Assembly (NCBI GenBank): GCA_965178125.1
Contig: OZ237757.1
Coordinates: 186,001-250,000 of the forward strand
Direction: 5' to 3'
DNA from: Bilabrum cf. latius
Lineage: Eukaryota
Length of the DNA stretch: 64,000 nucleotides
The notes below the pieces were generated by a model. It saw only the letters and a program-made list of their open reading frames with translations. It was not told the DNA's origin and ran no database searches. This document shows positions 3,890-64,000 of this stretch, in pieces; position 1 is the first letter of the stretch; every line of letters starts with the position of its first letter. A program made the position numbers and the translations under genes.

Positions 3890-3898
3890 CTGTCCCAA
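3874..3898 (+). repeat. Left TIR CCCCTTGCGACCATAACTGTCCCAA
   Basis: Exact reverse complement of 6621-6645. The core AACTGTCCCAA recurs at 3907-3917. Confidence 0.95.
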
Positions 3899-3968
3899 CC
3901 AACTGCAACTGTCCCAAGATTCAAATGCGACCACTTCTTGAGCTCATACAGGTCTCAATTCTAGAGTT

Positions 3969-6620: not shown

Positions 6621-6645
6621 TTGGGACAGTTATGGTCGCAAGGGG
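6621..6645 (-). repeat. Right TIR TTGGGACAGTTATGGTCGCAAGGGG
   Basis: Exact reverse complement of 3874-3898. A subterminal copy TTGGGACAGTT lies at 6403-6413. Confidence 0.95.
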
Positions 6646-37069: not shown

Positions 37070-37220
37070 TGTGAATGATGAATGCATGCTCCGGATTGAC
37101 TCGCCGTCGTGCTGGCGTGCCCGGTGGTTTCCAAAACTCTGATATAAATGTTATTGTTGCGTGGGAATACAGGTTCACACCCGTTTGGTTCAGCGTCCCT
37201 TATTCACCGTATCAGTCTGC

Positions 37221-40200: not shown

Positions 40201-43200
40201 CGCACGATGCCTCCAAGAGCATCCAGAAGGCCGCTCAGGAAGGCAGGCAGGATGCAGCTGCTGTCGGTCCTGGAGCCGACACTGTCGGCGGAAGCAGCAT
40301 GTCTCCCACGGAAGAGGCAACCCTCCGGCGAGAGGTGGCCACCCTGCGCGCATCCCTGAAACGGCAGTCGGCCAGGGAGGCAGAGGCACGAGACGAAGCA
40401 GACGCGCTGCGATCCAGGAACGGTTCGCTCGAGGCGGCCCGGCTGCGGCTGCAGAGGGAAGTTTCCCTCGCGAGGTAGGAGGGGACGGCCGAGGCAGTGG
40501 AGGCCAAGGCGGAGGCGAGACGCGCGCTGGAGGACGAGACGGCGCGGCTGGAGGAGCTCCTGGAGCAGTCGAGGAAGGAGGCGGCTGGCAGCCGCAGGGA
40601 GCTGCAAGCAGCCAGGGAGGGCGCTGCCGAGACCGCCGAGCAGCTATCCAAGGCGACGCATTCCCTGGAGGCAGAGAAGGAGCGCGCGACCGCCGCAGAG
40701 TCCCGTGGCGACGAGGCCCGAGCCGAGGCGGAGGGGCTCCGCGAGGAGCTCGATGCGCTCACCAAGCAGCTGAAGTAGGCCGAAGCCGAGTCGAGCGAAT
40801 CGGGCGAGGCTGCTGCCAAGCTGCAGAAGGACGTCGCCAAGTACAAGAAAGAGGCGCACAAGCAGAAGCGTCGCGCGCAGCAGGCCGAGTTTCAGTTCAA
40901 CGGGATGGAAGAAGACCTCGATTCGCTGCAGACGCAGGTCAGGTTCCAAGTCAGCGCCAAGCGCAAGGCCGACGCGGAGCTGGCAGGGGCCAAGAAGGCG
41001 CTGGAGGACGCCAAGGGGGCGCTTGAGGTGGCGGTTTCCAGGGAACAAGCGGCCCTGGAGAAGGCCAAGGAGCTGGAGCAGCAGGCGGAGAGCGGCATGT
41101 CAGAGATCGCGAGGCTCAGGGGGCTGGAAGCCGAGAGGGACTCTGCCAGGGCGGCGGCAGAGGCGGAGGGACAGGCGCGCAAGAGGGCAGAGTAGGACGC
41201 ATCCGCGGCCAAGATCGCGCTGGCGCGAGCAGAGGCGGCGAGGGACGCCTCCAAAGAAGAGGCAGGCGCCCAGCAGGCCGCCCTCCTCGACATGCAGGCA
41301 CAGCTGGCCAGGGGAAAGGAGGCGCTCGAGGAGGCAAGGCAGGAGGGAGCACAGGCTGTGCAAGAGGCGGAGGAGACGCGGGGCAAGCTGGCGGAAGCGG
41401 TGGCGCAGGCTGCGGCGCTCAGGCTCCAGCTGGAAGAGGCGCGCAACGACTCGGAGGTAGCGGCCAGCAAGCGCGAGAAGGATGCCAACGAGGCCGAAGC
41501 CGTGCTGCAGGCCACCCGCGCCGAGGCAGGGGAGTCCCACAGGCGGCTGGGCGAGGTCTCTAGCGCCCTGGAGGCCCTGACCGCCGACCTTGAGGCTGCC
41601 AGGAGGGCGAGGGACGCGGCGGAGAGCGAGTCTGCCGACCAGAGGGCAAGGGCGGACGGGCTCGAGCAGACGCTGGGCCTCGAGAGGCGCGCCACGACCG
41701 CGGCCAGGGAGGATCTGCAGGCCGCGGAGGAGGCAGCGGATAGGCAGGAGAAGGCGTCGAGGGCTGAGATCGAGGAGCTGAGCGGGAGGCTGGACGCCGC
41801 GGAGCGCCGTGTGTCTGTCCTTGAGGCCGAGCTCGAGTCCGCGGACGAGCGCGGTGAGGGTCTGCAGGCCAAGCTCAAACAGATGGAGAGGGCGGTGGCG
41901 GGGCTGGGGAACAGCGGCAGCCTCGGAGACGGGCTGGAGGATGAGGGTGATGAAGGCATCTTCGAGGATGAGGAACAGCAGGGCGGTGCGGCGGCCGGGG
42001 AGGGCGCGCCGGGGCGGGGCCTGGAGGCGGTGGTGGGTGTCAAGCACCTGCTGGAGGAGAAAGAAAAGGCCTTGCGAGAGGCGCGTGAGGCCGCCGCCAC
42101 AGAAAGTGCCAGGGCGGGCGAGGCCGAGGCAGCTCTGGAGGACCTGCGGGAGGACATGGCGGAGAGCGCAGAGGCGGCGGGGCAGATGGCCCTGGACCTC
42201 AAGGAGGCAAGGGAGAGGGGAGACTCGCTCGACTCCAAGGTCAGGGAGCTCGAGGGGCAGCTAGCAGAGGCAAGGGAGCGGGCGAGCGGGCTGGCGCGGG
42301 ACCTGGAGCGAGCAGAGCAGCGGGCGGCGGAGGCGGGCGGTGCGGAGGGACGGTTCGGCGCCCTGCTGACCCAGCTGGAGAGGAGGCTCGCAGACAGCAA
42401 GCAGGAGCTTGCCGAAGCGCAGGCCGAGCTGTCGGAGGCCAAGGGCAGCCGGGACGCGTTGGGCGAGGAGAAGCAGCGGCTTGTTGCGAGGGTGGAGGCC
42501 CTGGAGGCGGCAAGCAGGGCGAGGGCGCATGCCGCGGCGGCCTCAGAGGCGGCGGCCGATGGGCCGGGCGGTAGCGGTGCAAGTGGGCACACTACCGAGT
42601 CTGGTGCCCACAGGAACGGTTCCGACAGCCCCACCGGCGGCAGCAGGGCGGCGCGTGCCGAGGCCGAGGCGGCGGAGGCCGCGCTGGCCAGGACCAGAGA
42701 GCTCCTAGAGGCCGCGCAGGCCAGTGCCGGGGAGGCCAAGGAGGAGCTAGAACGGAGCAAGAGCGACGCAGAGGCGCGGGACAAGGCCCATGCGAGAGAC
42801 AGGGCGGCTGCAGCCTTGGCGATTGGCGCGGTGAGCGAGCTGTCCCGGTGCGTGGTGGACCTCAAGAACAGGCTCGAGGAGGCCGAGGCAGAGAGCCAGG
42901 CCAAGAAGCGGGCTGCCTCTCTGATGCGAGCCAAGGCAAAGGCAAAGGACCTGGCGCAGCAGCTCAAGGCCAAGGAGGCCGAGGCAGACGCGTGGGCGCT
43001 TCTCGTCTCTGAGAAGGAGCCAGCGACAACAGCCACGTCCGGGAGCGAAGCTGCCAGCCAAACCACTGTGGCGCCGCCTGCGCTGCCCGAGGGCATCAAG
43101 GAGTCAGCTGCCGAGGGAGTGGGCGCAACGGGTGCAGCGTCTGATGCTGCGGCCTGTGGAGCCAGCGAATCCGACGCATTGGCGCAGGCCCAGAGCCATG

Positions 43201-43946
43201 CCAGGCACCTGCGTGAGCTGGCTCGGGCCGGCTAGCTCGCCAGGGAACAGGCTCTCCGCGCTGAGGCCCTGCTGTTTGCCCTGCTTGGAGAGCAGCGAGC
43301 ACGCCTGGACAAGCAGGCCAAGGCCGAGAAGAGATCTGGCGGCGTTGGCTTGGACGGTGCGTGGTCGGGTGCAGCTGGCGGGCGACGGCTCAGCGGCGGA
43401 GGGTATCCCCAAGGGGACGCTGCGTCGGGCATCGGGGCATTCAGCGAGGTTTCCGCTGCAGTGGAGATGGCAAAGGACGGGCAGCTCCCTGCAGAGTGCC
43501 CTAGCCTGGTGCAGCTCGTGAGCTCTGGGTCGGAGGACGGCGTGGCCGCAGCGCTGAAGCGCGGTGCGGCGAGCCACGGTGGTAGGGCTGGCGGGTGTGC
43601 CGGAGACCAGACAAACGGTGCGGATCTCGATGCGGTTGTGGCCGGCGTGTCTGCTTGCGTGCGGCTGGGTGGCCCGTGGCTGGCCCCTGGGCCCAAGGAG
43701 CAGATAGTGCAAGGCGATGGGAAGGACGAGCGGTCAGTGCCTTGTAGTCCTGCGGCTGCTGCGGGGAGCGCGTGCACCCCTGCCAAGGGCAAAGGCAATA
43801 AGGGTGCATCCAGGCATGCTGCCCTACGAGGGCTCCAGAGTCCTCTGTCCCCTCTGCGGTCTGCGGTCAGGCAAGCGACCAGGGACGCAAAGGCAGCAGC
43901 CCGAGCTGGAAGTGATGATGCCGTTGCGTAGGACTTGGGGTTGTGA
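37221..43946 (+). CDS. Kinesin, kinesin-12/KIF15-like: N-terminal motor and long coiled-coil tail, ~2,241 aa (TAG read as Gln)
   Basis: Motifs DNI[TAG]VLCRIRP, AYGQTGSGKTFT (P-loop), SFLEIYNE, MNRESSRSH (switch I), LIDLAGSER (switch II), NINKSLSALGNVI, YRDSKLTHLLKDSLGGNSKT and neck ALVNED, all in one frame with about 13 TAGs. Ends at TGA 43944-43946. The subfamily assignment is by eye only. Confidence 0.92.
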
Positions 43947-44180: not shown

Positions 44181-47100
44181 TCACATGCCCAGCTGCTGTG
44201 CCCTGAACTCGATGGCCTGCACGATCGAGGAAACCACTACGAAGATGACCACGAGCATGAAGTCGGCCTTCAGGGCAGGCCACTTCTGGTAAGGGTCCGG
44301 CACCTTGTCTTCGTTCTCCTGTTTTGCACGCTGCAGCTGCCTCTCCCTGCGGTGTTTGCGCCTTCGCCGTCGACTCGTCTCGTTTGATCCGGGCTGCGAG
44401 TTGGTTCTGCCTGCCGGTGCGGGTGATAGCTGCCGGCTGCCTTTGCGATGCCTGCCGGTCGCGTATGCACCCGCGCTAGCATCATGTGACCCCTCCCAAG
44501 CGCTGCCCCCATGGCCCGCTCGTCGCGACTGGCTTGGGCTCGGGGCCGGTGACATCAAAGAATCGCCCACGGCAAATGCAGCATCAGATACAAAGTCAAA
44601 CCGTTTACCACCTCCGCGAGTGCTGCTTTTGGGTGTGCCAAAATCGAAGGTAAACTACCGCCCTGACCTCCCGTTCAGCCCCCGCTGCCCGTGCTTCGGA
44701 GTGTCGAGGCCCAGCACGCCCTCCATACCCTCTGTTTTGAGGGCTCGCATGATCGCCACTGTAGATCCCGAGGCACGTCTTGACATAGCCTAGGATGACT
44801 CGGAGCCTGTAGCTGCCGACCCACTTGAGCTAGGCCTACCACCGCCTGCGCTCTGCTCGCCAGTATCACTCAAATTGCTGCCTTGTGAGATGCTTCGGCG
44901 GTCTGACATGTCGCTCACCTGCAGCGCCATGGCCCGCCCCAGGATGGGATCCACGCGGTTTGAGTTACCCCACCCCTAGTTCCGACCTCCACCTCCACCA
45001 TAGCCATCATCAGCGCCACCGCTTTCTATGTCAGACTCTGCGGCACGATATCTGCGGTTTCGAGACACTCTTCGGCCAGTCGCTTCGTGCTCGTGATCAA
45101 TCCCATCGTAGCCAGGAGCAAGAATGGACCGCATTCCATCGGTATTCTCCAGTCCCGCTTGGCTGTCAGAACTGTTGAATGCACCCGGGGGCTCATGCTT
45201 GTGCATTGTGAGGAGTGTGGCGTCTGCAGGCATTTCGCCAGACATGGTCTTTGACAGGGAGCGCACCTCGCGCTGCTGCTGCTGCTGCTGCGCGAAATCG
45301 TCGCTGTTCGAGGAGGGCAAGTTCGCTGCGGGCTCGTCCGTGTCACGCCTGTGCTTCTTCCGCGTCCTGGATACATCGGACGCAGACCGAGGCCTGACTT
45401 TCCGGCCGGATGGTCTTCGCTTTCTCCAACCGATCGATGCACGCTTCGTGTTCTTCATGGCGGCGACCTGGGGCTCTTGATTGAGGTTGTAGTCCTTCTC
45501 CGGTGGACTCTCCTCGTCCTTCTCACGGCCCGAATGGTCGCGCGGGGTCGGCTCAAGCCCGGCCCCGCCACCTTCACCCGCATGGTCTGCTGCATCTATA
45601 TGGGCGCTATTGTCCCCTCCCTCGCTGCCTTCGAATCGAGACCCTTGAAGTTGCGCCACGGTGTCACTAATGGCTTCATCAGCGGCATCGTCCGCAATGC
45701 CATCTCCCAAGAAAGACAGGTCCCCCTCCTTGAAGCTCTCCGCGCTCGCACTATAGTTCCCGGTGCCTTTCGAGGCGCTCTAGCCCGCCTGCAATATGAA
45801 CTGGTCAATCCTGCGCACGTGGATAGAGCTCTTCTTTCGCATGATCCGCCGCATCTGCTCCTCATCGGACAGTTGGGAGCCGTTCGTGCTGCCAATGTCG
45901 GGAATGGCTGACCCGGTGAGTAGCCTCTGAGATGTGGTGGATGCATCCCTCTCACGGGTAGTGGCATCCATCGGATGCTGCATGCCAGTGTCTGGCACCT
46001 ACCTCGTACCATCGCTCGCCTTCCCGCCAGACGTATCGGCTGCTGCAGTGCCCGCGCGGAGCGACTGTGAGATGCTATCTCTACCAACGGACCCGTGGAC
46101 TGAACCCCTGGCCACAGGAATCAGCAGGTTTTGCTGCTGCATGCGGCGCTCAGCAGCTCTTTTGGCCAACCCAGAAAACCGAACAAGGGCACGGATCGTA
46201 TGACTAATGAGACGATGCCTCGCTCCAGCTAGCCTAGCTCTTGCTTGTGCAGTGGCCAACCAACCCGCCAGGCCGGTCACGATCGTCACCACGCCAAATC
46301 CTAGTCCGAACAGAACCGAGTTGATGCTGCCAGCGGGAACTCCCCATTCCTGCAGCCTGCTCCGCGCAAAACCAGCGCCCGCCGACTGCGAGTCCACGTC
46401 TGCCGATAGCACCCTCACCTTCACCCAACCCAGCGCAAATCCGGCTTCCTCGCCGAAGAACGCCATCAGCACGCAAAGAGTTGCAAACACCTCCGCTAGC
46501 ACGGCCCGATGCACCCTCCTAGACTTTCGCCTGCTCTTCCACACTGGGTCTGTCGGCCACCTAAGCGCCCAGCACCGCAAGCCGCTCAGCTGGCACGCCC
46601 TGAACAAGCTGTGGTGCAGCTCCGGCTCGATGACGAGGATCCTGGCCGCCTTAAAGGTGAGTGTGAACAGGAAGGTGAGCGAGAACGGGTCCAGCTGCAC
46701 GAACACCACGGCCATGAATACGCGGATGCAGAAAGAGTAGAAGAAGACCATGGTGTCCCGCGCTTTTGGATGCACCGTGTGAGCCTCGGACAGCACCTGC
46801 CACGCCAGCCTGGTCACCTCCATCATCCCGAACACGATCAGGAGCGCGACGATCTGGACGTACTGATTGTTCCTGGTTGCAACCACAGCGAGGAACATGA
46901 TTTCTCCGAGTGCAGGGGCAAGGATATCGATGAGCACGGTAATCATAATCGTGGGGCCGGGGTCGAGCCGCCGCCTCCCCGTCTCCCTGAGGCACTGGTC
47001 CCACAGAATGGCGCCCATCAGCAGAACTGGTCCTGCTCCTGCAAGCAGCTGCACGGCCCCTTCAACACCGGACTGCAACATGATCTGACCGAGTGGAATG

Positions 47101-49397
47101 CTTAGCCCGAACAGCACCCCAACGATTGTGAGGAAGCTGGGTGGGCACATCGGGTGCGCGTCGCGCCGAAGGCACGCCTCACACGACCCCGGGTGACCGT
47201 GCTCCGAATACGCTCTGCAGGACACGCAGCATTCGTCACACCCCATGAGAGAACATAGCCTATATCCGCAACAGCAACCCGCTCCTGTACGTCTCGCCCA
47301 CTGCAGCGAAATTACAACGATTTGCGTGGACTTGTGGGACGGGTCTGGCAGTGTCATCGCCGGTGTGGGTGGTTGTGTAGCCATCGCTGGGTTGCTGGGC
47401 CCTGCAAACGTCTTAGGTGGCTCGAGGCAATCGGCTGGGCCGAGCTTATTCCTATGGGTATTGGCCAGGTTTGCCTCGTGATTGCCCGCGCGATTCTTCT
47501 GAACTGCCACTCCCACAGACTCGACCCGGCCCCTCGCAACCGCTGACGTCGTTGTGCCATCTGCGGGCTTTGTAGCACCAGAGCCGCTGGACGACTGAAT
47601 GTCGTCAGTGGATGGAAACTGGTCTACTTGTGCTTGTGGTTCAAGCTCAAGGCCTGGTAGAGCAGGTTTCGGCGGCGATCTCGTGACCTGGACCGGTGGC
47701 AGGGTCGTGTTGGGGACGGCCTGCCCTGTCCGGGCATTCTTCCAGCGGTTGCTGCCACTTGGCGGAAACGAGACGTCAGCAGGGGCAGGTGCTGATACAT
47801 CATAGCCCAGTACGTGAGCCGCGGCCGCATCAGGGGCGCTGATATCTCTCTCTTTGCCCCGCAGCGACCCTCCCAGCATCGAATCAGATACCTCCGTGAA
47901 CGGGACAATGCGTGCCGCGCTGACGCCGCTCTCCTGCGTGCTTGCCCTCCGGGACCCCCCTTGGGATTGCTCTCCCCTCTTGAGATGGACCAAAGGATCC
48001 ATGCCTCGCTAGCTGCTCGCATCGCTACTCATGGTAGATCTTCGAGATATTTGCCCCTCGCCCCGCCCTTGTCCTGGACCCTTGACAGCTGTTGGCGTAA
48101 TGGGGCTTGATTGGCGCGAGCCTCTGCCACCGGTAGCACTGTCCACCATAGGCCTATCTCCGGAGCTCACTTGGCCCAGGGGCTACTCCTGTTTGTCGCC
48201 AGTTTGCGCGATCTCGCCCGACGCAGCACCCGCCTTGTAGGCAGCATCACGAGCACGGTGCCTACTGAAAGTTCTAGTCCCTAGCTGGGAGCCTAGGCCC
48301 AGCATGTCGATGTGCTATACCAACAAATGCACCTTATTTAGGAGGTCCTGCGCTTTGCGGATGCTCGCTGGCAGGCTTGGTCCATGCGGTCGGCCTGCAA
48401 CTGGCTGCATCTGCGCCTGGTTGAAAGCAAGATTCTGAGCCCGCATCATCTCCGATGCCACGCACAGCTCCTCCAAACACACCTCTGATGGAAGCACCAC
48501 GCCCCCGCAGCACCACCACGTCCGCGATGGCACTGCCGCCGGAAGCTGCTGCTCCTCCAAATCGGTGTGGCTGGGCCCGCCCCTGTCCCTTCGGGTGAGG
48601 GCATGCATGGCGGCGGTCAGTGCCGCCGATGCCCCATGCCAACCTTGCTTATCTATGTGGTCAAAAGATAGCATGGGACGCATTGATCGAGGCTATTGCC
48701 GACTTGCGACCACAGGCAAGCAGTCCTTGCCTCGACTTGCAGCAAGCGACGCTAACGGTCGCTCTGATAAGAATCCTTGCCTAGCTAGCTCTAGGGAGGG
48801 TGCAACGCTACCGCCGGCTTCTATTTGATCGCCAACCTATGCCAATAGGTCGCTTGCCTGTATTTGGATGGCTTTCCGTGCTCGAGTGACAAGTCTTGAC
48901 GACGACACACGCCGACGTACAAACCCAAATATGCGACCCCCAAACAGCAACCATGGTACAACAAGCTGCAGGATGGTCAAATTAATCGAAAAAAATGCGA
49001 TTCGCCACCAAAAATACACCTTGAAGCTGGCGAAAGTCTCTTGCGTGACTGAATCCGAATGCAGCGCTGGGGCTTCTAAATTGTACATAAATGCAATTCC
49101 AAGCCGAACAAGCGACATCCCAGAAACAAGAATCCACCAAAATAGTGATCCATACTGTGCCCCCATCGAAGCATGATACCATCGAAACGACTGAACCCAC
49201 TGTGACATAACAGCGATACATGCCCAGTTCAGCCCCCGTAGCTATGTAAGGCTCGTTTCGCCATCACTTGAAGCGCTTGCAGTAATACCTACAATTGCAG
49301 CTACCAAAAGCCCAATATTAAGAGTGAGAATTTGTTCAAGCTACAGCGTAGGCAGTCTACATCCGCAATTAAACAAGGCAGGCTATACTGAAGTCAT
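44181..49397 (-). CDS. Multi-pass membrane protein of unrecognised family, paralog A (~1,738 aa)
   Basis: ORFs 48837-49208, 48315-48683, 45999-48002, 45780-45998, 44976-45710 and 44181-44570 share a frame joined by TAG. ATG 49397, TGA 44181. Colinear homology with paralogs B-D. Confidence 0.8.
48435..48615. repeat. ~180-bp block nearly identical in all four paralogs (other copies ~53619-53799, ~58950-59130, ~62986-63161)
   Basis: Encodes AAMHALTRRDRGGPSHTDLEEQQLPAAVPSRTWWCCGGVxLPSEVCLEELCVASEMMRA; only a few nucleotide differences between copies by eye. Confidence 0.9.
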
Positions 49398-49634
49398 GGC
49401 CTCCACGAAATATCACGCAGCGATAGGTTGATTATTCTAGCGAAGCACTAGATATTGACTAGCAATATTGTGTCCTACCGTGGTAGCTCGCTAAGTGGTG
49501 TGGCAGGCTGGTTTGTATCTATTGCTGTGGGGCCAACGAAACGCGTCGGGGTGGCAGTTGGTGTGACGAAATGCTACTAGGCGTGCATTTATTTGAGAAA
49601 AAGCAAGCAGAAGATAACGATTGACATATCGTTT

Positions 49635-52600
49635 TTACAGCCCGATTTGCCGTGCCCGGAACTCGATCGCCGACACGATCGAAGATACCACCACGAAGCA
49701 GATCACCAAGTAGTGATCCGCCCACAGCGCCGGCCACGCCTTGAATGGATCTGGCACCGCTTCCCGCCTCTTCCTCTTCCGCCTCCTATGCCTGCGACTC
49801 GCGGAGGACCCCGCCACAGAAGCTGTCTCCGCCTCCGACCCAGCATAGGAAGACCGATCGTCATCACTTACCTGGCTCGTGCCCCCTGAGTACACAGTGC
49901 CCTGGCCCCCTGCACTTGACATGGACGTGCGGCGGGCCACTCCCCCCCGCCCAGGTCTGGTCTGCTTGGACATGGCAAACACCCCGCCGATACCTTGCTC
50001 ATGCATGGCCGCGCGGACTGCCACGGCCGCGCCTGATGCTCGCCTGGACAGGTGCTGCGTGGGGTCGAGTGGGCCCGTCAGCATGGCTTGGCAGCGGCTG
50101 CTGTCTGCATCGCCACAGGAGGCATTTGAGCCAATAATAGCAACGCCACCGAACGGGGCCGGTCCCTCCGATTGTCTGCGTTGACTCGCAAGCGGATGTC
50201 CTGATCGGTCTTCCTTCACCTGCGGCCCATTATGGCCATGCCTCAATACCGTGGGATCCAGACTCACAGGAGCAGCTGATGCATCGCGCGCGTCCCCCTT
50301 CGCTCCCCCGGTACCATCCTCCCACGCCTCCAGAATCATGCCGGCCGGCACCTCCTGAGATACAGTTTCAAGGGCAGATTGCGATCTATCTCGCTGACTC
50401 ATTCCACCTTTGCTAGACTGCAGCCCAACAGCACTCCCTAGCGAGTACCCAGGGCTGCCATCGTTCCCGCAAGATCCCAACGTCTCAAGTACCATTCCAT
50501 CCGACGATTGGTCGGGTTTGTTTCGTGATGCTGCGCCAGCAGCTGCGGACAGCCTGCCTGCCTTGCCCCGGCGACGAGCATTTCTACTCGACGAAGCACT
50601 GCCGGCCCACTTCCCATTCGTTGCAACGCCCGACGATTCATCATCCGATGTGGCGCTATCCGCTGACTCCCCATCCGCTCCCTACGCCAGCTGAAGCCCG
50701 TCCGCCGCAGCGCCATTTCGCTCAGCTCCCACGCTTGCGTCTGCTGCAAGGCCTGCGCCTTCCACAGCCACAGCCTCATCATTATCCTCGTCGTCGCTTG
50801 CAAGCTCCCCCAAGTCCCTGCTCGATCCACTGCCCCCGCCAGCCCCATCCATCGAGTCAATCGACCCCGACCGAGACACGGCACCGGTCCCCCCTGGCTT
50901 GCCCTTATCGCCTACACCTGTGTCCGACCCATCCACGTCTGTCTCTGTCCCTGTGCCTGTGCCTGTGCCTGTGTCTGCCGTTGACCCCGAGTCTGACCTC
51001 GCCAGAATCTGCTGGTCGATCCGGTGGGCGCTGGCCCCGCTCCTCCTTCGCTGCACAAGGCCCATCTCAAGCGATGCATGTCCCGCGCTCCCGTCCTGTG
51101 CTTCACTGGCTCCGCTCCCAGCGACAAGCATGATGCCCGCGCTCGCATGGGGCTGCAGCTGCATGGACTCCGCCGATGCACCGCTGGGCATCGCGCGCTC
51201 GTCCGCCGATGCACCCAACGACGAATCAGCAGATGCGCCCGCACCGCTGCCACCACCATCGGCTCCAACAGCCTGCTGCACCATCGCAGCAGAGCTCACC
51301 AGCGGAGTCCCTGCCCACAGATTCGAAAACAACTCGAACTCCGCTGAGGAAGCATCCACGTCACTGGCCCCCATGCCCCCGCCCTTGTGCTGGGCCAGCA
51401 TCGACAGCAGCGCTCGCCGACGCAGCCTCGCCAGCCGACCAAAGCGAGCCAGCGCAAGCATAACCTTGCTCAAGAATCGAAAGCGTGCGTTGGCCAGCCT
51501 GGATCGGGCCTGGTAGTACGACACCATCCCCGCCACCACCGTCACCAGAGTCACCAGCGCAAACCCAAGCCCGAACATCACAGAGTTCACGTCAGACTCA
51601 CCAAGACCTGAATCGTCCAGATAGTCCCGGAGCGCGTCTGACGGCGATGTAGTGTTCGACTGCTGCTCCGACGACAGCAGCCGCACGTGCACATGCCCCG
51701 CCGCAAACCCAACCTGCTCCCCCACAAACGCCATCAGCACGCACATTGTCGCCAGAATCTCCGCCACCACCGCCTGCTCCACACGAGAGGCCACGCGCCG
51801 GGTCTGCCACACCGGCTCCGTCGGCCAGCGCAAGGCCCAGACCCGCCACTCCGACAGCTGCATGGCCCGCCAGAAGCTCGTGTGCAGCCCCGGCTCCAGC
51901 ACCATGATGCGCAGCACCTTCACGCAGATCGTGAACAGGAACGCCAGCGAGAACGGGTCCAGCTGCACGAAGGCCACTGCAATAAACACTCGAGTGCTGA
52001 ACGAAAACAGAAATACCATCGCGTCCCGCGCTTGCGGGTGCACCGTGTGAGCCTCCGCCAGCACGAGCCAAGCCATACGTGTGATCTCGATGATGCCCAG
52101 AAGGAAGAGGAAGGCGAAGATCTGCCCGAACTGATTCCCCGCAAAAGCGCTCAGTCCAAGGAACATGATCTCGCTCAGTGCGGGGGCCACGATGTCTGTC
52201 ATAACTCCGGTGATCATGATGATGCCTGGGTCCATTCTCCTCCTGCCCGTCTCTCGCATGCACTGGTCCCACATGATGGCAGAGACCAGCAAGACGGGAC
52301 CAAGCCCAGCCAGAATTGAGAGCGCCCACTCCACTCCTAGCTGCACTGCAATCTAGATGCCAGGGACACTCATGCCGAAGATGAGTCCCACTATGGTCAT
52401 GTAGCCTGGTGGAAGCATCGAGCGAACCCTGCCCGTGCGACGGTACATTTGAATATGTGGCACACCCAGGCCATTCTGCACGCAGCAGACATCGCACCCA
52501 ATCAGCCAGCACGGCCTGGCCCCGCAGCAGCAGGCGCACCCCGTCCGTCTGGTCCACCGCATGAATGACGTTGAGCACGAGCCCGACTCGAGCTGTGATG

Positions 52601-54575
52601 GATCTACTGGGCCCATTGTTTCTTCCTTGCCTGGTGGAGGCTGTACCTCCCGCACGACAGCGCCAGCAGCGACTGGACCTGCGAGCAGCCCGATACTTCG
52701 AAATGCCTCCTTGTCGGCAGCTGGATGATCTCCATCGCCACTTGTCTTCTCGACCAATGCTGCTGGCACCCCTGTGCCTAGAAGACCCAATGTGGCCGCG
52801 CCATCAACTTTGTCAAGCGAGCGATCATCGCTGAATCTGGGCCTGTTGGTGGCTGTCTCAAGAGGCACCGGAAAGTAACCGTTGATGGGTGCTTCGCTTG
52901 CATCCAGACCACTGCCGCCCTCAAGACTTGCAGCTGCTTGCACTTGTTTGCTGCGGCTAGAGCCCATTTTCATGCTCAGCACGTACCGGCGTGACGTGTT
53001 TTCCGCAGACTCAGACGAGTCCTGCACGCTGCGGCCGTGCGCATCGTCCACACCAGATCCAGAGTGATATGCTACAGAATCGCTCTTCCTCAAGCTACCG
53101 CCCTCTATCATCGATGACTGTACCTGTGGTAGGATTCGCGATGCCGATGCCACGCTGGCGATAGTGCCAGCCTTGTGGGAAGCTGTGCTGGACCTGCTGC
53201 CGTCACACACGGGCACCCGAATGTCGGTCGCATCATCAAACGATTGAGCCATAATGACACCGGGTGCATCGGGGCGCGATCCGATTCCTGGCACTGTAGA
53301 CTCGTCTGCACCCGCTCGACGGCTGGCGCCGGATGCAGGAGTAGCTTCGCAACCCCCGCGTTCTGCCACAGCTCTACTTCGTGCAGTGGAACTTGCGGCA
53401 TCCACCACCGGTGGACTCATCAGCGCAGTGACACTCCCCGCGCTTGACCGCCTGCCCAGGCCGCCTACGCTCGATCGCCGGCGCATTATTCCCATGTCGT
53501 TACCCTCCGCTCCCCCTTCCCCAGTATCGGACTGTACTCTGGCGATCAGCCGCCGCACCCTCGCAATCAGTGCCCTTCCCCGCGCCACGCTCGCCGGGTC
53601 ATCTTTGTCGTCTTTGAACTGAGCCCGCATCATCTCCGATGCCACGCACAGCTCCTCCAAACACACCTCTGATGGAAGCATCACGCCCCCGCAGCACCAC
53701 CACGTGCGCGATGGCACTGCCGCCGGAAGCTGCTGCTCCTCCAAATCGGTGTGGCTGGGCCCGCCCCTGTCCCTTCGGGTGAGGGCGTGCATGGCGGCGT
53801 TCAGGGCCGCTTCGGCCAGGGGGCGGATGGCCGGATCCGCCTGGTCGAGAGTGAAGCCCGGCTCTTCGTACTATTGTGGCGAGCTTGCGACCACGGCCCC
53901 GCAAAGATTGTCTGGATTTTGCGACTGCATTTTCTTCTCAACTGTCACCTTGCCAAGGTGGGCGTGGCCCGACACATCAACCTTCTCACTCGCATTGTCA
54001 TCGTCTGCAGCAAACTCTAGATTGTTTTCTGCCTCATCGGCTTGCATTTCGATGGCCTTGGCGGCTCGGTCGAGCAAGGCCTTCGACGATCGAATTCTCC
54101 GGCGGAATGCGAACAAATGCCCAGATAGTATCACTGCTGGAACCAAAACCTATAGGCATGCAATCACAGCTACATAGAATCCTAAACGCCACCAAAAGTA
54201 AGGTTTCGAGTCCCGGAAAGATTGCGGTGAAACAGACTCAGACAGAAGCAATGGGCTCAGGGACACATGTACGAATGAGATTCCAAATCGAGCAGCTGAC
54301 GTAATGCAAGCTACTATGCTCCATACAAGCCCTGAGTACCCAGCTCCCATGGTTGCAAAGTACCACCTGAATAGCTGCACAACCTGCGAAATAGCATCAG
54401 AACTGGCCCAAAGGCAGCCACGGAGCCAAAGCACGCTGTGAACGCCATCACTGGAAGCACTAGATGCATAACCAGACACTAATGCTACCAGGAGACCAAG
54501 CGTGAACTGCTTGAACCGGACTGCTGGAACACCAAAGCAATGTGGCGCACTGGCAGCTGAGTATGGAGCAGCCAT
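49635..54575 (-). CDS. Multi-pass membrane protein, paralog B (~1,646 aa)
   Basis: ORFs 54150-54575, 53871-54146, 52353-53792, 50682-52346 and 49635-50495 share a frame joined by TAG; stop is TAA 49635. Confidence 0.82.
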
Positions 54576-54968
54576 CCGTTGACCAGATCTCTTGAATTAA
54601 TATACGTTAGTGACTGCTTCGACTGCCTGACGGTGGAACAGAGTAAAGCAGTATATATTATGCAGACGAATTGCTCCTGTCGTCGAATCCTGAGACGGAA
54701 ATGGCCGTTTCGCTAGACTACCGAACCGCAAGGAACCACAGGGAACTTTGACACCGAAATGCCGAGACACTGCTGGCAGTGGCAGGCTACATCGGCATTT
54801 CAAGATGCTCACGGCGACTGATACGTGCTTTGGCCAGCATAAATCAATTCCATGCACCACAAGAGCTCCTCCTCTTCATCACCTTCATAACCAATCACCA
54901 ATAGTCCCGTATCTGACACATTGGACTACAGGCCCACACACATGCTGCGACATTCAGCGATAAATAGA

Positions 54969-57900
54969 TTAGAGCCCGATCTGCCGTGCCCGGAACTCGA
55001 TCGCCGACACGATCGAAGATACCACCACGAAGCAGATCACCAAGTAGTGATCCGCCCACAGCGCCGGCCACGCCTTGAATGGATCTGGCACCGCTTCCCG
55101 CCTCTTCCTCTTCCGCCTCCTGTGCCTGCGACTCGCGGAGGACCCCGCCACAGAAGCTGTTTCCGCCTCCGACCCAGCATAGGAAGACCGATCGTCATCA
55201 CTTACCTGGCTCGTGCCCCCGGAGTACACAGTGCCCTAGCCCCCTGCACTTGACATGGACGTGCGGCGACCCACTCCACCCCGCCCTGGTCTGGTCTGCT
55301 TGGACATGGCAAACACCCCGCCGATACCCTGCTCGTGCATGGCCGCGCGGACTGCCACGGCCGCGCCTGATGCTCGCCTGGACAGGTGCTGCGTGGGGTC
55401 GAGTGGGCCCGTCAGCATGGCTTGGCAGTGGCTGCTGTTTGCATCGCCACCGGAGGCATTTGAGCCATTCATGGCAACGCCACCAACACGGCCCGGTCCC
55501 TCCGATTGTCTGCGTTGACTCGCAAGCGGATGACCCAATCGGTCTTCTTCCACCTGCGGTCCGTTATGGCAACGCCCCAATACAGTGGGATCCAGACTCA
55601 CAGGAGCAGCTGATGCATCGCGCGCGCCCCCCTTCGCTCCCCCGGTACCATCCTCCCACGCCTCCAGAATCATGCCGGCTGGTAGATCGCCAGATGCTGT
55701 CTCGAGGGTGGACCCGGCTCGGCCTCGTTTACCTGTAGGTGATTGAGTAGACTGCAGCCCAACAGCACTCTCTAGCGAGTACCCAGGGCTGCCATCTTTC
55801 CCGGAAGATCCCAACGTCTCAAGAACCAACGCATTCGCGTGGTGGGTGGCTCCTGCAGCCGCGGACAACCTGCCTGCCTTGCCCCGGTGACGAGCATTTC
55901 TACTCGACGAAGCACTGCCGTCCCACTTCCCATTCGTTGCAACGCCCGACGATTCATCATCCGATGTGGCGCTATCCGCTGACTCCCCATCCGCTCCCTA
56001 CGCCAGCTGAAGCCCGTCCGCCGCAGCGTCATTTCGCTCAGCTCCCACGCTTGCGTCTGCTGCAAGGCCTGCGCCTTCCACAGCCACAGCCTCATCATTG
56101 TCCTCGTCGTCGCTTCCAAGCTCCCCCAAGTCCCTGCTCGATCCACTGCCCCCGCCAGCCCCATCCATCGAGTCAATCGACCCCGACCGAGACACGGCAC
56201 CGGTCCCCCCTGGCTTGCACTTATCACCTTCACCTGTGTCCGACCCATCCACGTCTGTCTCTGTCCCTGTGCCTGTGCCCGTGCCTGTGTCTGCCGTTGA
56301 CCCCGAGTCTGACCTCGCCAGAATCTGCTGGTCGATCCGGTGGGCGCTGGCCCCGCTCCTCCTTCGCTGCACAAGGCCCATCTCAAGCGATGCATGTCCC
56401 GCGCTCCCGTCCTGTGCTTCGCTGGCTCCGCTCCCAGCGACAAGCATGATGCCCGCGCTCGCATGGGGCTGCAGCTGCATGGAATCTGCCGATGCACCGC
56501 TGGCCATCGCGCGCTCGTCCGCCGATGCACCCAACGACGAATCAGCAGATGCGCCCGCACCGCTGCCACCACCATCGGCTCCAACAGCCTGCTGCACCAT
56601 CGCAGCAGAGCTCACCAACGGAGTCCCTGCCCACAGATTCGAAAACAACTCGAACTCCGCTGAGGAAGCATCCACGTCACTGGCCCCCATGCCCCCGCCC
56701 TTGTGCTGGGCCAGCATCGACAGCAGCGCTCGCCGACGCAGCCTCGCCAGCCGACCGAAGCGAGCCAGCGCAAGCATTATCTTCATCACAAAGCGTGAAC
56801 GAGCACTGGCCAGCCTGGATCGGGCCTGGTAGTACGACACCATCCCCGCCACCACCGTCACCAGAGTCACCAGCGCAAACCCAAGCCCGAACATCACAGA
56901 GTTCACGTCAGACTCACCAAGACCTGAATCGTCCAGATAGTCCCGGAGCGCGTCTGACGGCGATGTAGTGTTCGACTGCTGCTCCGATGACAGCAGCCGC
57001 ACGTGCACATGCCCTGCCGCGAACCCAACCTGCTCCCCCACAAACGCCATCAGCACGCACATCGTCGCCAGAATCTCCGCCACCACCGCCTGCTCCACAC
57101 GAGAGGCCACGCGCCGGGTCTGCCACACCGGCTCCGTCGGCCAGCGCAAGGCCCAGACCCGCCACTCCGACAGCTGCATGGCCCGCCAGAAGCTCGTGTG
57201 CAGCCCCGGCTCCAGCACCATGATGCGCAGCACCTTCACGCAGATCGTGAACAGGAACGCCAGCGAGAACGGGTCCAGCTGCACAAAGGCCACTGCGATG
57301 AACACTCGAGTGCTGAACGAAAACAGAAATACCATCGCGTCCCGCGCTTGCGGGTGCACCGTGTGAGCCTCCGCCAGCACGAGCCAAGCCATACGTGTGA
57401 TCTCGATGATGCCCAGAAGGAAGAGGAAGGCGAAGATCTGCCCGAACTGATTCCCCGCAAATGCGCTCAGTCCAAGGAACATGATCTCGCTCAGGGCGGG
57501 GGCCACGATGTCCGTAAGCACAGCCGTAGTTACAATGATGCCTGGGTCCATTCTCCTCCTGCCCGTCTCTCGCATGCACTGGTCCCACATGATGGCAGAG
57601 ACCAGCAAGACGGGACCAAGCCCAGCCATGAGTTGCACTAACCCCTGAGCGCCAAACTGCACGGTAAGTTGAACTAGTGGCACGCTAATGCCAAACATGA
57701 AGCCTACAATAGATAGAAACGCCGGTGGACACGTCGAATGGGCCCGCGAAGTATGGCAACAACGGTTACCCCTGCCGGGTATATTGTTGTCTGCTTGTAC
57801 CGCCCTGACACAACACTAGTCGCACCCAACCAGCCGGCACGGCCTGGCCCCGCAGCAGCAGGCGCACCCCGTCCGTCTGGTCCACCGCATGAATGACGTT

Positions 57901-59927
57901 GAGCACGAGCCGGACTCGAGCTGTGATGGATCAACAGGAGCGTCCTCCTGCTTGCTAGTGGGTGGAGGTGGCATCGCTCTCACCACGGTTCCAGCCGCGA
58001 CAGGAAGCACCAGAAGACCAGTACTGGTGCCCACGTCGTTGCTTGTAGCATGAGTATTGCCTATGGCATCAGGTGCGCCAGGCGCCCCACTAGCTCCCAA
58101 CGTACCCAAAATGCCACTGGGTGCTGGGGGGCTGAGTGCGGCGTTTACACGGGGCGCGCTAGATGGGTTGGACACGTCGGTCTATCCCTGGACCGCAGTG
58201 GATAGCAAGAATGGGTCGTCCACGTCAACATGAGCAAGCACGCTTTCGTGGTCGCTTGATGCCCCCATGCCGGTGCAACTGTCTGGATGCGTCCCACGAT
58301 CTGACTTTTCCAAACTGAGCATGTAACGATTGCTTGCTAGTCCTAAAGTCTGGGACGACTCTGGTAAATTGATTGATGACTGTACGCTACCCCCTCTGAA
58401 GGAGTCTCCGCCTGTTGCGCCCGACCTCGACTTGGACCAGGCAATGCCTTCATCGCTCACTTTTAGGCTGCCGCCCTCTATCATCGATGACTGTACCTGT
58501 GGTAGGATTCGCGATGCCGATGCCACGCTGGCGATAGTGCCAGCCCGGCTGGAAGCTGTGCTGGATCTGCCACTCGCGTTGACCCGCCCCTGGATGAGCT
58601 AAGCAGTGCCATCGGTATCGTTGCTCTCCGGGGGCGGCTTTGGTTCCGTGTTCATGGGCATAGTGCCCTTCCAAGGTCGGTGCACGGCCACGGAAACCCC
58701 CGCTATCCGTGATGCATTTGCACTCGCAGCGGCATCCACCACCGTTAGACTCATCAGCGCAGTGACACTCCCCGCGCTTGACCGCCTGCCCAGGCCGCCC
58801 ACTCTCGATCGTTTCTGCTAAGTGAGCTGCTAGCCCTCATCGTCCTCCTCCCTGGTCTGCTATCGTACTCTGGCGATCAGCCGCCGCACCCTCGCAATCA
58901 GTGCCCTTCCCCGCGCCACGCTCGCCGGGTCATCTTTGTCGTCTTTGAACTGAGCCCGCATCATCTCCGATGCCACGCACAGCTCCTCCAAACACACCTC
59001 TGATGGAAGCATCACGCCCCCGCAGCACCACCACGTGCGCGATGGCACTGCCGCCGGAAGCTGCTGCTCCTCCAGATCGGTGTGGCTGGGCCCGCCCCTG
59101 TCCCTTCGGGTGAGGGCATGCATGGCGGCGTTCAGGGCCGCTTCGGCCAGGGGACGGATAGCCGGATCCGCCTGGTCGAGAGTGAAGCCCGGCTCTTCGT
59201 ACTATTGTGGCGAGCTTGCGACCACGCTTGTGTCTTGAGCGGTCGCACCGCCAGTGTTAGACTCCCTCGGCGCAGCCGGCTTTGAGCCGGCTCCCTCCAC
59301 ATCGTCACTCGGTTTATCAGAATCAATATCATGTGAAAAGACATCCGCAGCAAACTCTAGATTGTTTTCTGCCTCATCGGCTTGCATTTCGATGGCCTTG
59401 GAGGCTCGGTCGAGCAAGGCCTTTGACGATCGTTTTCTTCGAGAGAATGCGAACAGCTGGCCGGACAAAATGTAGGCCGGGGCAATGACTTGGACCAGGC
59501 CCAAAACGATGGCAAAGAATACAAAGCGCCACCAAAAGTACGCCTGCGAGTTCTCGAATGCGGTCGGGATCAGAATGTCGTTTAAGATGCGAGGGCTCAT
59601 CGAGTTGTAGCCGTAACCGGCTGCAAAACGAAGTATACATAACATGGCAGCAACTGAAGTCCACATATAACCACTGTATCCAGCACCCATTGTTGCGAAG
59701 TACCACCTAAAGAGTTGCACTAGCTGAGACATTGCAGCAATGCTTCCCCAAGCGAGGCCCCTTAGCCATAGCACGCTGTGAACCCCATCACTGGCAGCAC
59801 TCGTAATATATCCACACAGAATTGCTACGACTAATCCTAGGGCGATCCACATGTGCTTTTGCGAGAAGTAAGACGCATAGCATGTCCCGGTTTCGTGCTT
59901 GATGCGCTTCGGTACCTTGTGGGCCAT
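54969..59927 (-). CDS. Multi-pass membrane protein, paralog C (~1,652 aa)
   Basis: ORFs 59202-59945, 58860-59123, 58599-58802, 58182-58526, 57816-58175, 55998-57698, 55236-55868 and 54969-55229 share a frame joined by TAG; stop is TAA 54969. The 3' ~2.7 kb is highly similar to paralog B. Confidence 0.82.
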
Positions 59928-60140
59928 CGCAGCCCTGGCTATCACCGTGACCTCGCAGGAGTAGGAGCCGAGACAGCTAGAATCGCAGATGTTGCTGAAG
60001 AGCTCTGTCAGATATGTGCAAGCACAATTTTATCAGGTATGTGCAAGACCATCCAATCCACAATTCATGCGATGCAGGCGCCGCGCGGCATTGCAGCCTG
60101 CAACAACGGAACCAAGACCGGGCCAACATCTATTTGGCCC

Positions 60141-63100
60141 TCACAGCCCCAACTAAATAGCCCGGAACTCGATCGCCGACACGATCGAAGATACCACCAC
60201 GAAGCAGATCACCAAGTAGTGATCCGCCCACAGCGCCGGCCACGCCTTGAACGGATCAGGGATGGCCCCGCTCCTTTCTCTTCGTGCCCTACCGTTCCTC
60301 CCGCCACCCTTGTGCATCGCAGCCGGAGCCGCAGCGGACCTGCCTAGACCCAGCGCTCTCTACGAAACTGAAACCGACTGCTGGGAGTACATGGCCCCCC
60401 GCCCCACGCTGGACACCGAGCTGCTCCTCGACCTCATGCAGCGGCGAGTGTCCTCCCCCCACCTCGCCAGTGGCCTGGTCTGCTTGGACATGGCAAACAC
60501 ACCGCCGATGCCCTGCTCGTGCATGGCTGCGCGGACTCTCCCAGTTCTTACGGAAAATACAGATGTCGCAGACGAGGAAGATGAGTCGGAATCAGACGGG
60601 CGGGAGCCGTTCGAGCTGACATCTAGCTCCACGCCGGCGGACGTGCCTGCCCTTTTGTTGTTCTGATCTAGATTCACCCTGGTCTGCAGCGGCGTGGCAT
60701 ACTTTGCTGTACCTCCGGTGTGTGCGTGTGCATGCTGTACACGATTCAAGTTCCGTGCAGGAGTCATATCACCCGCTTCATTGTCCTATGGTAAGGAACA
60801 CGGGGATGCATCAGCCGAAGGGCCCATCAAATTGATAGACGGCGACGACCTCGGCAGGGAGTTTCTGCTGTCCTGGGGATCGCTGTCTTGGGGACGAGGC
60901 TGGGTCTGTGAATCAGGTGCAGGCAACTCGATCACACTGCTCTGCGATTTCACCTCCTCATTCGCCTCCATGAAAGCAGCTGCGCTCGCTAGAGCAGTCC
61001 TGTTCCACAGGGCCGCAGAAGAGGCTTGTGGGCCATTGTCACAACCTACAGCTCCTTTCCTTGCTTGCAAACCCTCCTTCAGCACCCGTATGAGGCACAG
61101 CCGCCGGTCTCGGACCATCTTAGCAAGCGACTTTAGAGCGAGCTTCACGCGGTCATTGTGATCCCTAAGCATCAAGGCGTACTGCTGTTGCGCCCTTTGA
61201 AACGAAAGCCCGCCCGCAAGGATCGTCACAAGCGTCACCACTGCATACCCCAGCCCGAAGAGGGTCGAATTCACGTTCAGCTCCTGCACTCCAATGCCCA
61301 CAAGGAATTTTCTCGCTGCCCCTGCCACCGCATTGTCAGCGCTCGAGGACGCAGCAGCAAACATTCGAATGCGGATAAGTCCTACTGCAAAGCCCAGCTC
61401 CTCTCCCATGAACGCCATCAGAACGCACAGAGACACTAGGATCTCCGTGAACACCGCCTTACCCACGCGATAGGCTGTGCTTCGCGTGCTTTTGAGCGTC
61501 GCGTTCGGCCACCGCATGTCCCAGCACCGGCATCCGCTCTGTTGCAGCGCGTTTGCATAATAGATGTGGTACCGCGGGTCCACAATCAGAATGCGACCCA
61601 CACGGACACCGATCGTGAATAGGAACGCCAGCGAGAACGGATCCAGCTGCACGAATGCTACCGCAAGGTAGACTCGAAAGCTGAAATTGAACAGGAAAAT
61701 CATCGAATTCCTTGCCGCGGAGTGGACAGAGTGAGCATCTGCCAGCACCCGCCATGCACGCTGCGTCAGCTCGGCAACGCATAGCAGGAAGATGAGCGCC
61801 ATGATCTGGCCATACTGGCTCCCACCAGCCGCATCCAACCCCACAAACAGAATCTCGCTGAACGAAGGAGCCAGAATGTCCGTGAGTGCTGCTGTGATGA
61901 GCATTATGCCTGGGTCCATCCTCCTCCTGCCCGTCTCTCGCACGCACTGGTCCCACATGATGGCAGAGATCAGCAAGGGTGGCCCGGCAGCAGCCAGCAG
62001 GGTCACAGAGCCAGTAACGCCCAGTTGCTCGGCAAGCTGGATGGAGGGGACCCCAAGGCCAAATATCAGCCCAACGATGGTTAAAAACGTCGGTGGACAC
62101 AACAGATGCGGCCTATCCGAGGCACAGCATAGGCCCCCTCGGCCTCCTCTGTGCCGGGCAGTCATGCACATAGCATCGCAACCCAAAACTGTGCACGCCC
62201 GGTACCCGCAGCAGCAGGCGCATCCTGTGCGTCTGGCCCACATCCGGCAAGACGTGGTCCAGGCCAATACCTCGGAAGATGCCTGAATTCGCTCGTGAAC
62301 GCTATCGCCCATTTCTCTTCTCATCGGGCTGGCATTGGGTGAGTGCTTTGTGCTGATGCCGCCACCCTTGTCTTGTTGAATAACTCGATTCGATTTAAAC
62401 CGCTTGAATTCTCCGGAGCGACTAGACAAATCTGTTGTGCTGGGCGGTGCAGCAGCTACAGGGCGCAGTTTGCGCGGCACCATGTCCACGTCCGCCTCGG
62501 TGATGACACTGTCTTGGCGCTTCGCGTCTGAGGTGGGCTCTAGCGCCGGAGATGGCTGCTCGGAGCTTCCATTCACACGCCGAAGTGAGCCCATCAACAT
62601 GTCATGGCCGCTGGTCCATCTCTCAGGAGCGATCTGAACCAGTGATGATGACGACTGCACGGCCATGGTGATGGCCTGATCTGTCACCTGATGCTGGTGA
62701 CTTTGAGAACCAGACGGCTGCGAAGGGACCAATAAGCGTGTGCCCGGCGTGGACCATCGCGTGTGCATCCGCATGGTGCTACTTCCGTGTGTAGTTCTAG
62801 ACAGACTGACAGCCGGCTAGGTGGCCGGCACGCGACTCTGGCTGTGGACCGTCCCGTGCTCCGATTCCAGCACACACGCATGGTTCTTGATCAGGGATTC
62901 CGCTCTCTACTGTGCGGCATACAGCCGCAGATGGCACTCCTCAGCTGACACAGACAAGCCTTTACCGGAAGCACCCGAACTGCGCGCCCGCATCATCTCC
63001 GATGCCACGCACAGCTCCTCCAAACACACCTCTGATGGAAGCACCACGCCCCCGCAGCACCACCACGTGCGCGATGGCACTGCCGCAGGAAGCTGCTGCT

Positions 63101-63893
63101 CCTCCAGATCGGTGTGGCTGGGCCCGCCCCTGTCCATTCGGGTGAGGGCGTGCATGGCGGCGTTCAGTGCCGCTCGTGCAGATTGCCGCACCACTGAAGG
63201 AGTCCCATCAAGCAAAATCGTCGAAAACCGTGAGCGGACTGTGCTGCTTGTCTACGTGTCGATTGCATCGCTTGACTTGGGGAGCTGTCGGCTTTGCGGA
63301 TTCAAGGCCGACGCCGAGGAACTTGTCGGCGCCACCCTGTGAGATGCTTCGCTTGCTGCTCGAATGGCACGCTGCAGCAAGCGTGTTGCCGAATCATTTC
63401 TCCTTTTGAATGCGAATGTACTGCTTGACAGAGTCAGTATGGGGATCAGAATTTGGTACACCCCGATAGGCAGGACGAAAAAAACCAACCGCCAATTAAA
63501 GTACTCTGGATTCTGTTCAAAACCACCTTGCGTTACAGCGTCCGATACAAGAACTGGTGCATTGCTGGTGTACATAAAGGACACGCTCCACCGTGTCGCC
63601 GTGCCTACCAGTGCAGCGAGCCACCAAATGCGTGATTCATAGCCACCGCCCATGGTTGCAAAGTACCATCGAAACAGCTGTACGATCTGGGACAGGGCTG
63701 CAATACTGCCCCAATTAATCCCTCGAAGCCACAAATTGCTGGTTGAGCCATCACTGGCCGCGCTGCCAGAGAAGCCGATAAAGGCAGACACTAACAACCC
63801 AATCGCAAGTGATAATACCTGTCTCTGGGATAAACAAACGCTGCCACAAGGACAGCAAGCAGGCCATATATGTATAGGACAGCATCCAACCAT
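60141..63893 (-). CDS. Multi-pass membrane protein, paralog D (~1,250 aa)
   Basis: ORFs 63252-63920, 62907-63215, 60786-62774 and 60360-60767 share a frame joined by TAG. Ends EFRAI[TAG]LGL then TGA 60141. ATG 63893 follows an upstream in-frame TAA at 63945. Confidence 0.8.
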
Positions 63894-64000
63894 GAAAATA
63901 GTGAGACGGCGGGGAATCAAGCGAGAATGTGTGACACAAGAAGTTTACGTCACGATGATGACCATCGGGGCTTGGCCAATGGTTCCGCATTGTGCGCGGC

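Follow-up and report, generated by a model that had tools for sequence, protein, structure and literature searches.

We analysed a 64,000-nucleotide stretch of the Bilabrum cf. latius genome (C23:186001-250000 of 48.6 Mb; 62% GC; hereafter the window), which we take to come from a single-celled marine-type flagellate. Its genes, among them four tandem paralogs (A to D), carry in-frame TAG codons, and reading through TAG only opens long frames, the largest of 4,889 codons. Comparison with homologs across the genome indicates that the nuclear code is very probably of the type of NCBI translation table 15 (TAG = Q, TAA and TGA as stops): UAG alone is reassigned, to glutamine, and UGA, the main stop, and UAA terminate translation. 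As read from the sequence, UAG is a third glutamine codon that makes up about 1 glutamine codon in 10. The original prediction had assigned these codons in the same way from the four paralogs, and outside homologs bear it out, both at conserved dynein columns and through TAA codons at homologous C-termini.

TAG in conserved genes and in the tandem paralogs

We compiled 19 dynein heavy-chain genes, which yielded 39 frame pieces with a total of 99,893 codons (443 TAG, 3,670 CAG and 651 CAA), and aligned them to 270 homologs, using the best 60 per piece and columns with at least 30 residues. Among columns conserved to at least 90%, TAG fell on glutamine in 17 of 18 cases and on leucine once (p = 4e-25; spread over 11 gene pieces), where glutamine makes up 235 of the 7,584 columns. 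CAG stood at glutamine in 164 of 192 cases and CAA in 22 of 28, and all other codons fitted the standard table. TAG was absent from conserved columns of glutamate (0/400), tryptophan (0/463), tyrosine (0/258) and lysine (0/283). The Ras family gave 65 matches; in 8 of the 30 loci examined, TAG occupies the catalytic glutamine of the DTAGQ (G3) motif. The share of TAG among glutamine codons rises with that of CAA (rho 0.56) and drops with GC content at third codon positions (rho -0.63; n = 57), the behaviour expected of a synonymous codon. A set of 134 de-duplicated open reading frames (ORFs) was chosen by codon score, and some of these may run into introns. Internal TAG is present in 100 of them, so that most genes would be cut short if annotated with the standard code.

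The tandem paralogs were the ground of the original prediction. The CAG of B (49902-49904) and the TAG of C (55236-55238) in the same context are present on the minus strand as described, and so are the TAGs common to B and C at 50682/55998 and 53871/59202. The C-terminal ends also read as reported: EFRAQQLGM-TGA in A (44181), EFRARQIGL-TAA in B (49635, with CAA) and in C (54969, with CAG), and EFRAI[TAG]LGL-TGA in D (60141). Two more columns, at B 54150 and B 52353, show TAG exchanging with CAG or CAA. A to D combined have 32 TAGs, which fall in 29 columns of the alignment, the majority in unalignable low-complexity linkers. In six columns TAG stands opposite a residue on which the other three paralogs agree; this is glutamine in 3 of 6, compared with a background of 58/1,603 (3.6%; p about 9e-4). 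The tabulation of residues opposite TAG that had been proposed thus gave an enrichment of glutamine, but also one column each of Trp, Asp and Asn, the latter two in poorly aligned linkers. With three of six informative columns and one clean Trp counter-case, the statement that this internal control needs no database was too strong.

A test of whether TAG exchanges with CAG or CAA at the synonymous rate, likewise proposed, was run on B and C and proved powerless, as 954 near-identical codon pairs include 3 TAG-bearing ones (two TAG/TAG, one CAG/TAG). The 41 B/C pairs with a glutamine codon (30 CAG/CAG, 6 CAA/CAA, 2 TAG/TAG, 2 CAA/CAG and 1 CAG/TAG) contain no switch to another residue. B and C are identical at 58 of 60 bases upstream of TAA and at 16 of 60 downstream, and the TAGs they share are compatible with an origin before their duplication or conversion. 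A fifth paralog on contig C28, judged by eye, shares two of the TAG columns of B and has the end FRARQLGL-TGA; the genome holds six copies. By itself, the paralog comparison is suggestive rather than decisive.

The paralogs are long proteins with helical membrane domains at the N-terminus and in the centre, a motif rich in Cys, a C-terminal helix and long disordered linkers. A Pfam search for the family returned zero matches, and Atlas matches were confined to uncharacterised eukaryotic clusters (0.90-0.91, low recognition), with none for the N-terminal domain. An AlphaFold model reached a predicted local distance difference test score (pLDDT) of 43.6. Over 49635-63944 of the window gene conversion is patchy: copies that otherwise diverge are near-identical in short blocks, namely around the central WWCCGG motif and in the C-terminal helix.

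The tRNA(CUA) gene and the release factor eRF1

A single nuclear tRNA(CUA) gene with a clean cloverleaf (69.8 bits) lies on the window's own contig at C23:907607-907679, and a DNA search gave a copy number of one. Pattern scans, from which the tRNA set is incomplete, found no second CUA tRNA and no UUA tRNA. Four other CUA/UUA pattern candidates were tested and rejected as tRNAs, and 43 loose-pattern matches were about as many as in the control. ARAGORN labels the gene "Pyl" from its anticodon only; pyrrolysine decoding would place UAG at enzyme-specific sites, and TAG stands at glutamine columns genome-wide.

When compared with 32 other nuclear tRNA bodies, tRNA(CUA) matches tRNA-Tyr(GUA) at 20 of 24 positions of the acceptor and anticodon stems, tRNA-Gln(CUG) at 12 and tRNA-Gln(UUG) at 6; the maximum among 469 non-cognate pairs is 16/24, and the two Gln tRNAs match each other at 9/24. 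Acceptor-stem matches are 12/14 with tRNA-Tyr, and 2/14 and 6/14 with the two Gln tRNAs. Within the 33 nuclear bodies, C1:G72 is confined to tRNA-Tyr and tRNA(CUA). This is the eukaryotic tyrosine identity pair, with A73 and G34 as further determinants (PMC9976931), and tRNA(CUA) has neither A73 nor G34. Its D-stem equals that of tRNA-Gln(UUG) at 8/8 positions, and G73 is also common to both. By bit score, its top phage match is a tRNA-Gln aligned over positions 7-66 (D-stem 8/8, anticodon stem 8/10, T-stem 8/10). This molecule is fairly described as having a Gln-like core to which a Tyr-like acceptor stem is joined. As to its origin, we infer that descent from tRNA-Tyr and descent from an ancient tRNA-Gln whose acceptor stem converged are equally plausible, each falling short of an even chance, and that recombination is about half as plausible as either.

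UAG would be read by this single tRNA(CUA) gene, and since a CUA anticodon cannot pair with UAA, the two codons could be uncoupled. The ordinary GlnRS may charge the tRNA, aided by its Gln-type D-stem, U35 and G73, and the loss of A73 and G34 would keep TyrRS from the Tyr-like acceptor stem. When tRNA bodies for Trp, fMet or yeast Tyr are given a CUA anticodon (U35), the resulting amber suppressors can take glutamine via the E. coli GlnRS (PMC9976931; PMC1483225). Those are laboratory cases with a bacterial enzyme and often trace charging, whereas here a natural eukaryotic tRNA is predicted to be charged with Gln; the eukaryotic Gln identity elements are blank in the table of that review (PMC9976931). 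If it derives from tRNA-Tyr and is charged as predicted, this tRNA would be a natural eukaryotic counterpart of Gln-accepting amber suppressors.

The release factor gene itself carries TAG. Its codon at human-numbered position 44 faces glutamine in 114 of 116 homologs. The protein retains GTS, Thr32, E55, NIKS, S70 and YxCxxxF, its residues absent from all 117 homologs include T27, A29, D30, V35 and V60, and positions 129-130 are SH, as opposed to NK or SR. Recognition of UAG may have been lost or weakened via A27T, G29A, N30D, I35V, S60V and L69Q, which flank GTS and NIKS. Of the two TAGs, both in the N-domain, one is the final codon of exon 2. Residual termination at UAG would cut short eRF1 itself, which speculatively might act as feedback. 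The nearest eRF1, P0032 (67%), likewise has changes at 30, 69 (Gln) and 129; it may belong to a related lineage that is recoded or pre-adapted. Among 79 metagenome eRF1 loci searched for relatives with the same code, none exceeded 73% identity, and 6 had stops in tblastn alignments.

Several observations weigh against glutamine as the meaning of UAG. In dynein columns conserved to at least 70%, TAG fell on glutamate in 8 of 41 cases (CAG in 26 of 406), on glutamine in 26 and on others in 7. The eRF1 TAG at human-numbered 69 faces leucine in 111 of 117 homologs and glutamine in 4, the latter implying that Gln at 69 alone is not diagnostic. The TAG at 49242 of paralog A is opposite Trp in all three other paralogs, and a TAG of GluRS sits, by eye, where the GlnRS of the same genome has Trp. 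Overall, tRNA(CUA) is nearer to tRNA-Tyr(GUA) (48/70) than to the two tRNA-Gln (42/70 and 42/71), and it comes from an incomplete tRNA search in which 63 of 780 candidates were scored and neither Leu nor His tRNAs turned up. The two Trp sites suggest that TGG-to-TAG is a one-step Trp-to-Gln change forbidden by the standard code.

It is improbable that UAG is ambiguous, being read mostly as Gln and at times as Tyr or Trp through the retained C1:G72 pair. The restriction of that pair to tRNA-Tyr and tRNA(CUA) and the two sites of TAG versus Trp speak for such decoding, and so does the placement of TAG at columns with a Trp, Tyr, Leu or Ser majority in 7 of 71 cases, compared with 30 of 766 for CAG and CAA (p 0.03). 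This lean, however, is as predicted from one-step mutation of TGG, TAY, TTG and TCG to TAG. Moreover, the conserved Tyr and Trp columns of dynein contain no TAG, and two of the Tyr determinants (PMC9976931) are missing from tRNA(CUA).

Other tRNA loci also have uncommon features. L011 and L043 are nuclear tRNA-Ile genes with a GAU anticodon, and L242 is a tRNA-Val(GAC); eukaryotic tRNA-Ile usually has an AAU anticodon. A tRNA-Val-like piece (L243-L245 and elsewhere) occurs in about 15 copies within AT-rich repeats that share 500-800 bp at 96-99% identity. The repeat carries short inverted repeats and is probably a mobile element.

Gene ends and spliced contigs

Seventeen dynein pieces end in a stop, and the end matches that of the homologs in 14 (3 TAA, 11 TGA); the three without such alignment were excluded. 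Twenty of the 30 Ras loci carry a terminal cysteine (prenylation) motif followed immediately by TAA (4) or TGA (16). The defined C-termini of dyneins and prenylated GTPases combined end in TGA in 27 of 34 cases, in TAA in 7 and in TAG in none. The eRF1 gene ends in TAA, and the 134-ORF set ends in TGA 110 times and in TAA 24 times.

A context-dependent UAG, specifying Gln internally and termination near some 3' ends, is hard to reconcile with these ends and is very unlikely. TAG does occur at most 10 codons before TGA in several ORFs, including the kinesin and 4,889-codon genes of the window, and raw counts near 3' ends looked enriched (11 in 660 codons). This excess was an artefact of duplicated genes that disappeared on collapsing them, leaving 9 TAGs in the last 10 codons of the 134 ORFs against 6.0 expected (p 0.15), neither an excess nor a deficit. 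Conserved sequence also persists past TAGs that lie 4 and 20 codons from the end, and none of the 34 defined C-termini is TAG. In ambiguous codes of the Condylostoma/Blastocrithidia type, the reassigned codon also terminates genes and becomes scarce ahead of the real ends; TAG does neither in the 34 C-termini and the 134 ORFs.

The ciliate code of table 6, in which TAA and TAG both encode Gln and TGA is the sole stop, would account for TGA as the main stop and for the one internal TAA in the 65 Ras matches, which also hold two TGA, one of them at a match edge. Nevertheless, TAA comes right after homologous C-termini in three dyneins, four prenylation motifs, eRF1 and paralogs B and C. The 28 dynein AAA_6 matches contain 20 internal stops, all TAG and zero TAA, and tRNA(UUA) was not found in pattern scans, making this code a very remote prospect.

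None of the runs listed is recorded as RNA. In contigs from runs X5 and X8, however, three GT-AG introns are missing from the legumain gene (window 31336-31679), which suggests spliced RNA in those runs; the RNA status of X5 is a guess, DNA may be present, and contig-level evidence drops rare variants. Zero-difference X5 contigs span all but one of the 13 kinesin TAGs and 4 of the 13 in paralog A, and they argue against U-to-C editing. Editing of TAG to CAG under the standard code draws on the single transition between the two codons and on RNA evidence that consists of contigs and not raw reads. It is opposed further by the presence of a tRNA(CUA) gene and by the finding that no gene end is TAG, and we rate its probability as low as that of the ciliate code. 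Nonsense mutations in pseudogenes or sequencing errors, which four paralogs without known family or function might suggest, can be dismissed, given TAGs across all 19 dynein genes and in the sole eRF1 and GluRS found, frames without TAA or TGA for thousands of codons, and contigs of other runs that match base for base. Strain polymorphism at TAG was also considered and rejected: runs X5-X8 are essentially identical over 29600-49550, with no TAG/CAG alleles. A short intergenic multi-copy element at 31880-31970 of the window has high depth and many variant letters in every run compared.

Lineage, published UAG recodings and other features

The organism is, with good confidence, a bicosoecid stramenopile. 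Two quick trees, whose supports are values of the Shimodaira-Hasegawa-like approximate likelihood ratio test (SH-aLRT) and not bootstraps, place eRF1 in a clade of 8 with Bicosoecida sp. CB-2014 (98%) and dynein-2 in a set of 5 with Cafeteria roenbergensis (98%, very long query branch), in each case the best named match. Nad7 is 71% identical to that of Cafileria marina, the sole named taxon among 120 similar matches; its relatives P0121-P0125 (88-100% identity), from several metagenome collections, are close kin in public data that could help to date the recoding. A cluster look-up of ten relatives revealed no named taxon nearer than these. The mitochondrial contig C111 (38,401 bp) has a tRNA(UCA) and code-4 ORFs (UGA = Trp), and its 30 long ORFs all end in TAA. 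The Cafileria marina mitochondrion (PMC6723347) likewise uses UGA for Trp, has a tRNA(UCA) and measures about 40 kb, traits not unique to bicosoecids. An 18S rRNA array lies on contig C12. A second 18S rRNA (L054, C95:6099-7900), on an 18-kb contig and 78-83% identical to the array, looks like that of a contaminant or co-cultured eukaryote and may be fungal.

UAG-only reassignment to Gln is known from Iotanema spirale, Hartmannula sinica, Trochilia petrani and Protocruzia tuzeti (PMC11687900, PMC5304391, PMC9161772). Iotanema uses the same table, with UAA and UGA as stops; it is a fornicate with UAA as the dominant stop (PMC5304391, PMC9161772), whereas the present genome belongs to a different supergroup and has UGA as the main one. 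Its eRF1 carries T32G, where T32 is kept here, and its tRNA(CUA) was only predicted, as a derivative of a duplicated tRNA-Gln(CUG) (PMC5304391), whereas here a gene was located and tRNA-Gln(CUG) is no close match to it. In the three ciliates UAG is a full sense codon for Gln, as here. UAA ends 86.9-98.3% of genes in five recoded phyllopharyngean genomes, in contrast to the predominance of TGA in our ORF set, and the GC content of those ciliates is 27-54%, below that of the window. For H. sinica and T. petrani a suppressor tRNA is reported not to have been found, as opposed to one tRNA(CUA) here (PMC11687900). Table 15 phages, including crAss-like ones, share TAG = Q (PMC9523058); they rely on the separation of bacterial RF1 and RF2, whereas here one eRF1 must split UAG from UAA. 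The rhizarian exLh also changed UAG only, but to Leu, and has L69A in eRF1, compared with a TAG-read Gln at 69 here (PMC5304391). As neither the T32G of Iotanema nor the L69A of exLh is present, the route here differs. Cumulatively, this genome is distinct from published cases in: 1) its supergroup; 2) its GC-rich DNA; 3) UGA as main stop; 4) an atypical tRNA(CUA); and 5) an intact T32.

No report of nuclear recoding in a stramenopile was found in the literature, which was covered as the main text of open papers. That the recoding has already been reported somewhere, for instance as table 15 in the public record of the genome, is conceivable, though we lean against it. We advance only tentatively, and think unlikely to hold in full, the combined proposal that this is the first stramenopile UAG-only recoding, GC-rich and UGA-main, with a tRNA derived wholly or partly from tRNA-Tyr(GUA) (G34C, A73G, Gln-type D-stem) whose identity is now Gln.

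To our knowledge, nuclear UAA and UAG nearly always change meaning together, and the papers covered on the one fornicate and the three ciliates with UAG-only Gln had not identified a decoding tRNA. This genome supplies a codon table, a candidate tRNA(CUA), a GlnRS and an eRF1 with a distinct set of changes, so that the split of UAG from UAA by eRF1 and the acceptance of a CUA tRNA by GlnRS become testable. The link of stop recoding to AT-rich, UAA-dominated genomes is broken. Since bicosoecids host giant viruses, this lineage may also be a candidate for hosting those giant viruses in which TAG encodes Gln. A search of the genome for Pox_A32, a marker of endogenous virophages or Polintons, gave no match, and the tRNA(CUA) 20-mer had 0 matches in viral contigs.

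Table 1. Coordinates of features in the window, counted from its first letter, and of the eRF1 locus
Feature	Position	Strand	Description
Paralog A (unknown family, multi-pass membrane protein)	44181..49412	-	stop-to-stop frame, 13 in-frame TAG, TGA end; start codon unassigned
Paralog B	49635..54596	-	4 in-frame TAG (54150, 53871, 52353, 50682), TAA end
Paralog C	54969..60029	-	9 in-frame TAG, TAA end
Paralog D	60141..63944	-	6 in-frame TAG, TGA end
TAG of C opposite CAG of B (49902-49904)	55236..55238	-	block 94.5% identical
TAG of D, TGA four codons later	60153..60155	-	opposite CAG in A, CAA in B, CAG in C
TAG of B	54150..54152	-	opposite CAG in A, CAA in C, CAA in D
TAG of B	52353..52355	-	opposite CAG in A, CAA in C, CAG in D
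TAG of A	49242..49244	-	B, C and D all have TGG (Trp) here; single well-aligned counter-case
Stop TAA of B	49635..49637	-	B/C identity falls away beyond
Stop TAA of C	54969..54971	-	follows EFRARQIGL
Kinesin gene	37143..43946	+	13 in-frame TAG, TGA end
4,889-codon coiled-coil/proline-rich frame	8745..23414	-	33 TAG read through, TGA end
DNA transposon	3870..6649	+	perfect 29-nt terminal inverted repeats
DDE_1 transposase frame in the transposon	3942-6320	+	10 in-frame TAG, TAA end
eRF1	L001 1068-2941		four exons, TAA end, two in-frame TAG

The 4,889-codon gene encodes a long coiled-coil region and, at its C-terminus, many near-identical proline-rich repeats; it had no Pfam match. The DNA transposon appears to split a host gene, since the frames 158-3889 and 6598-8478 end and begin within its repeats. 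As the former ends inside a repeat, its TAA at 3887-3889 does not mark the real end of a gene.

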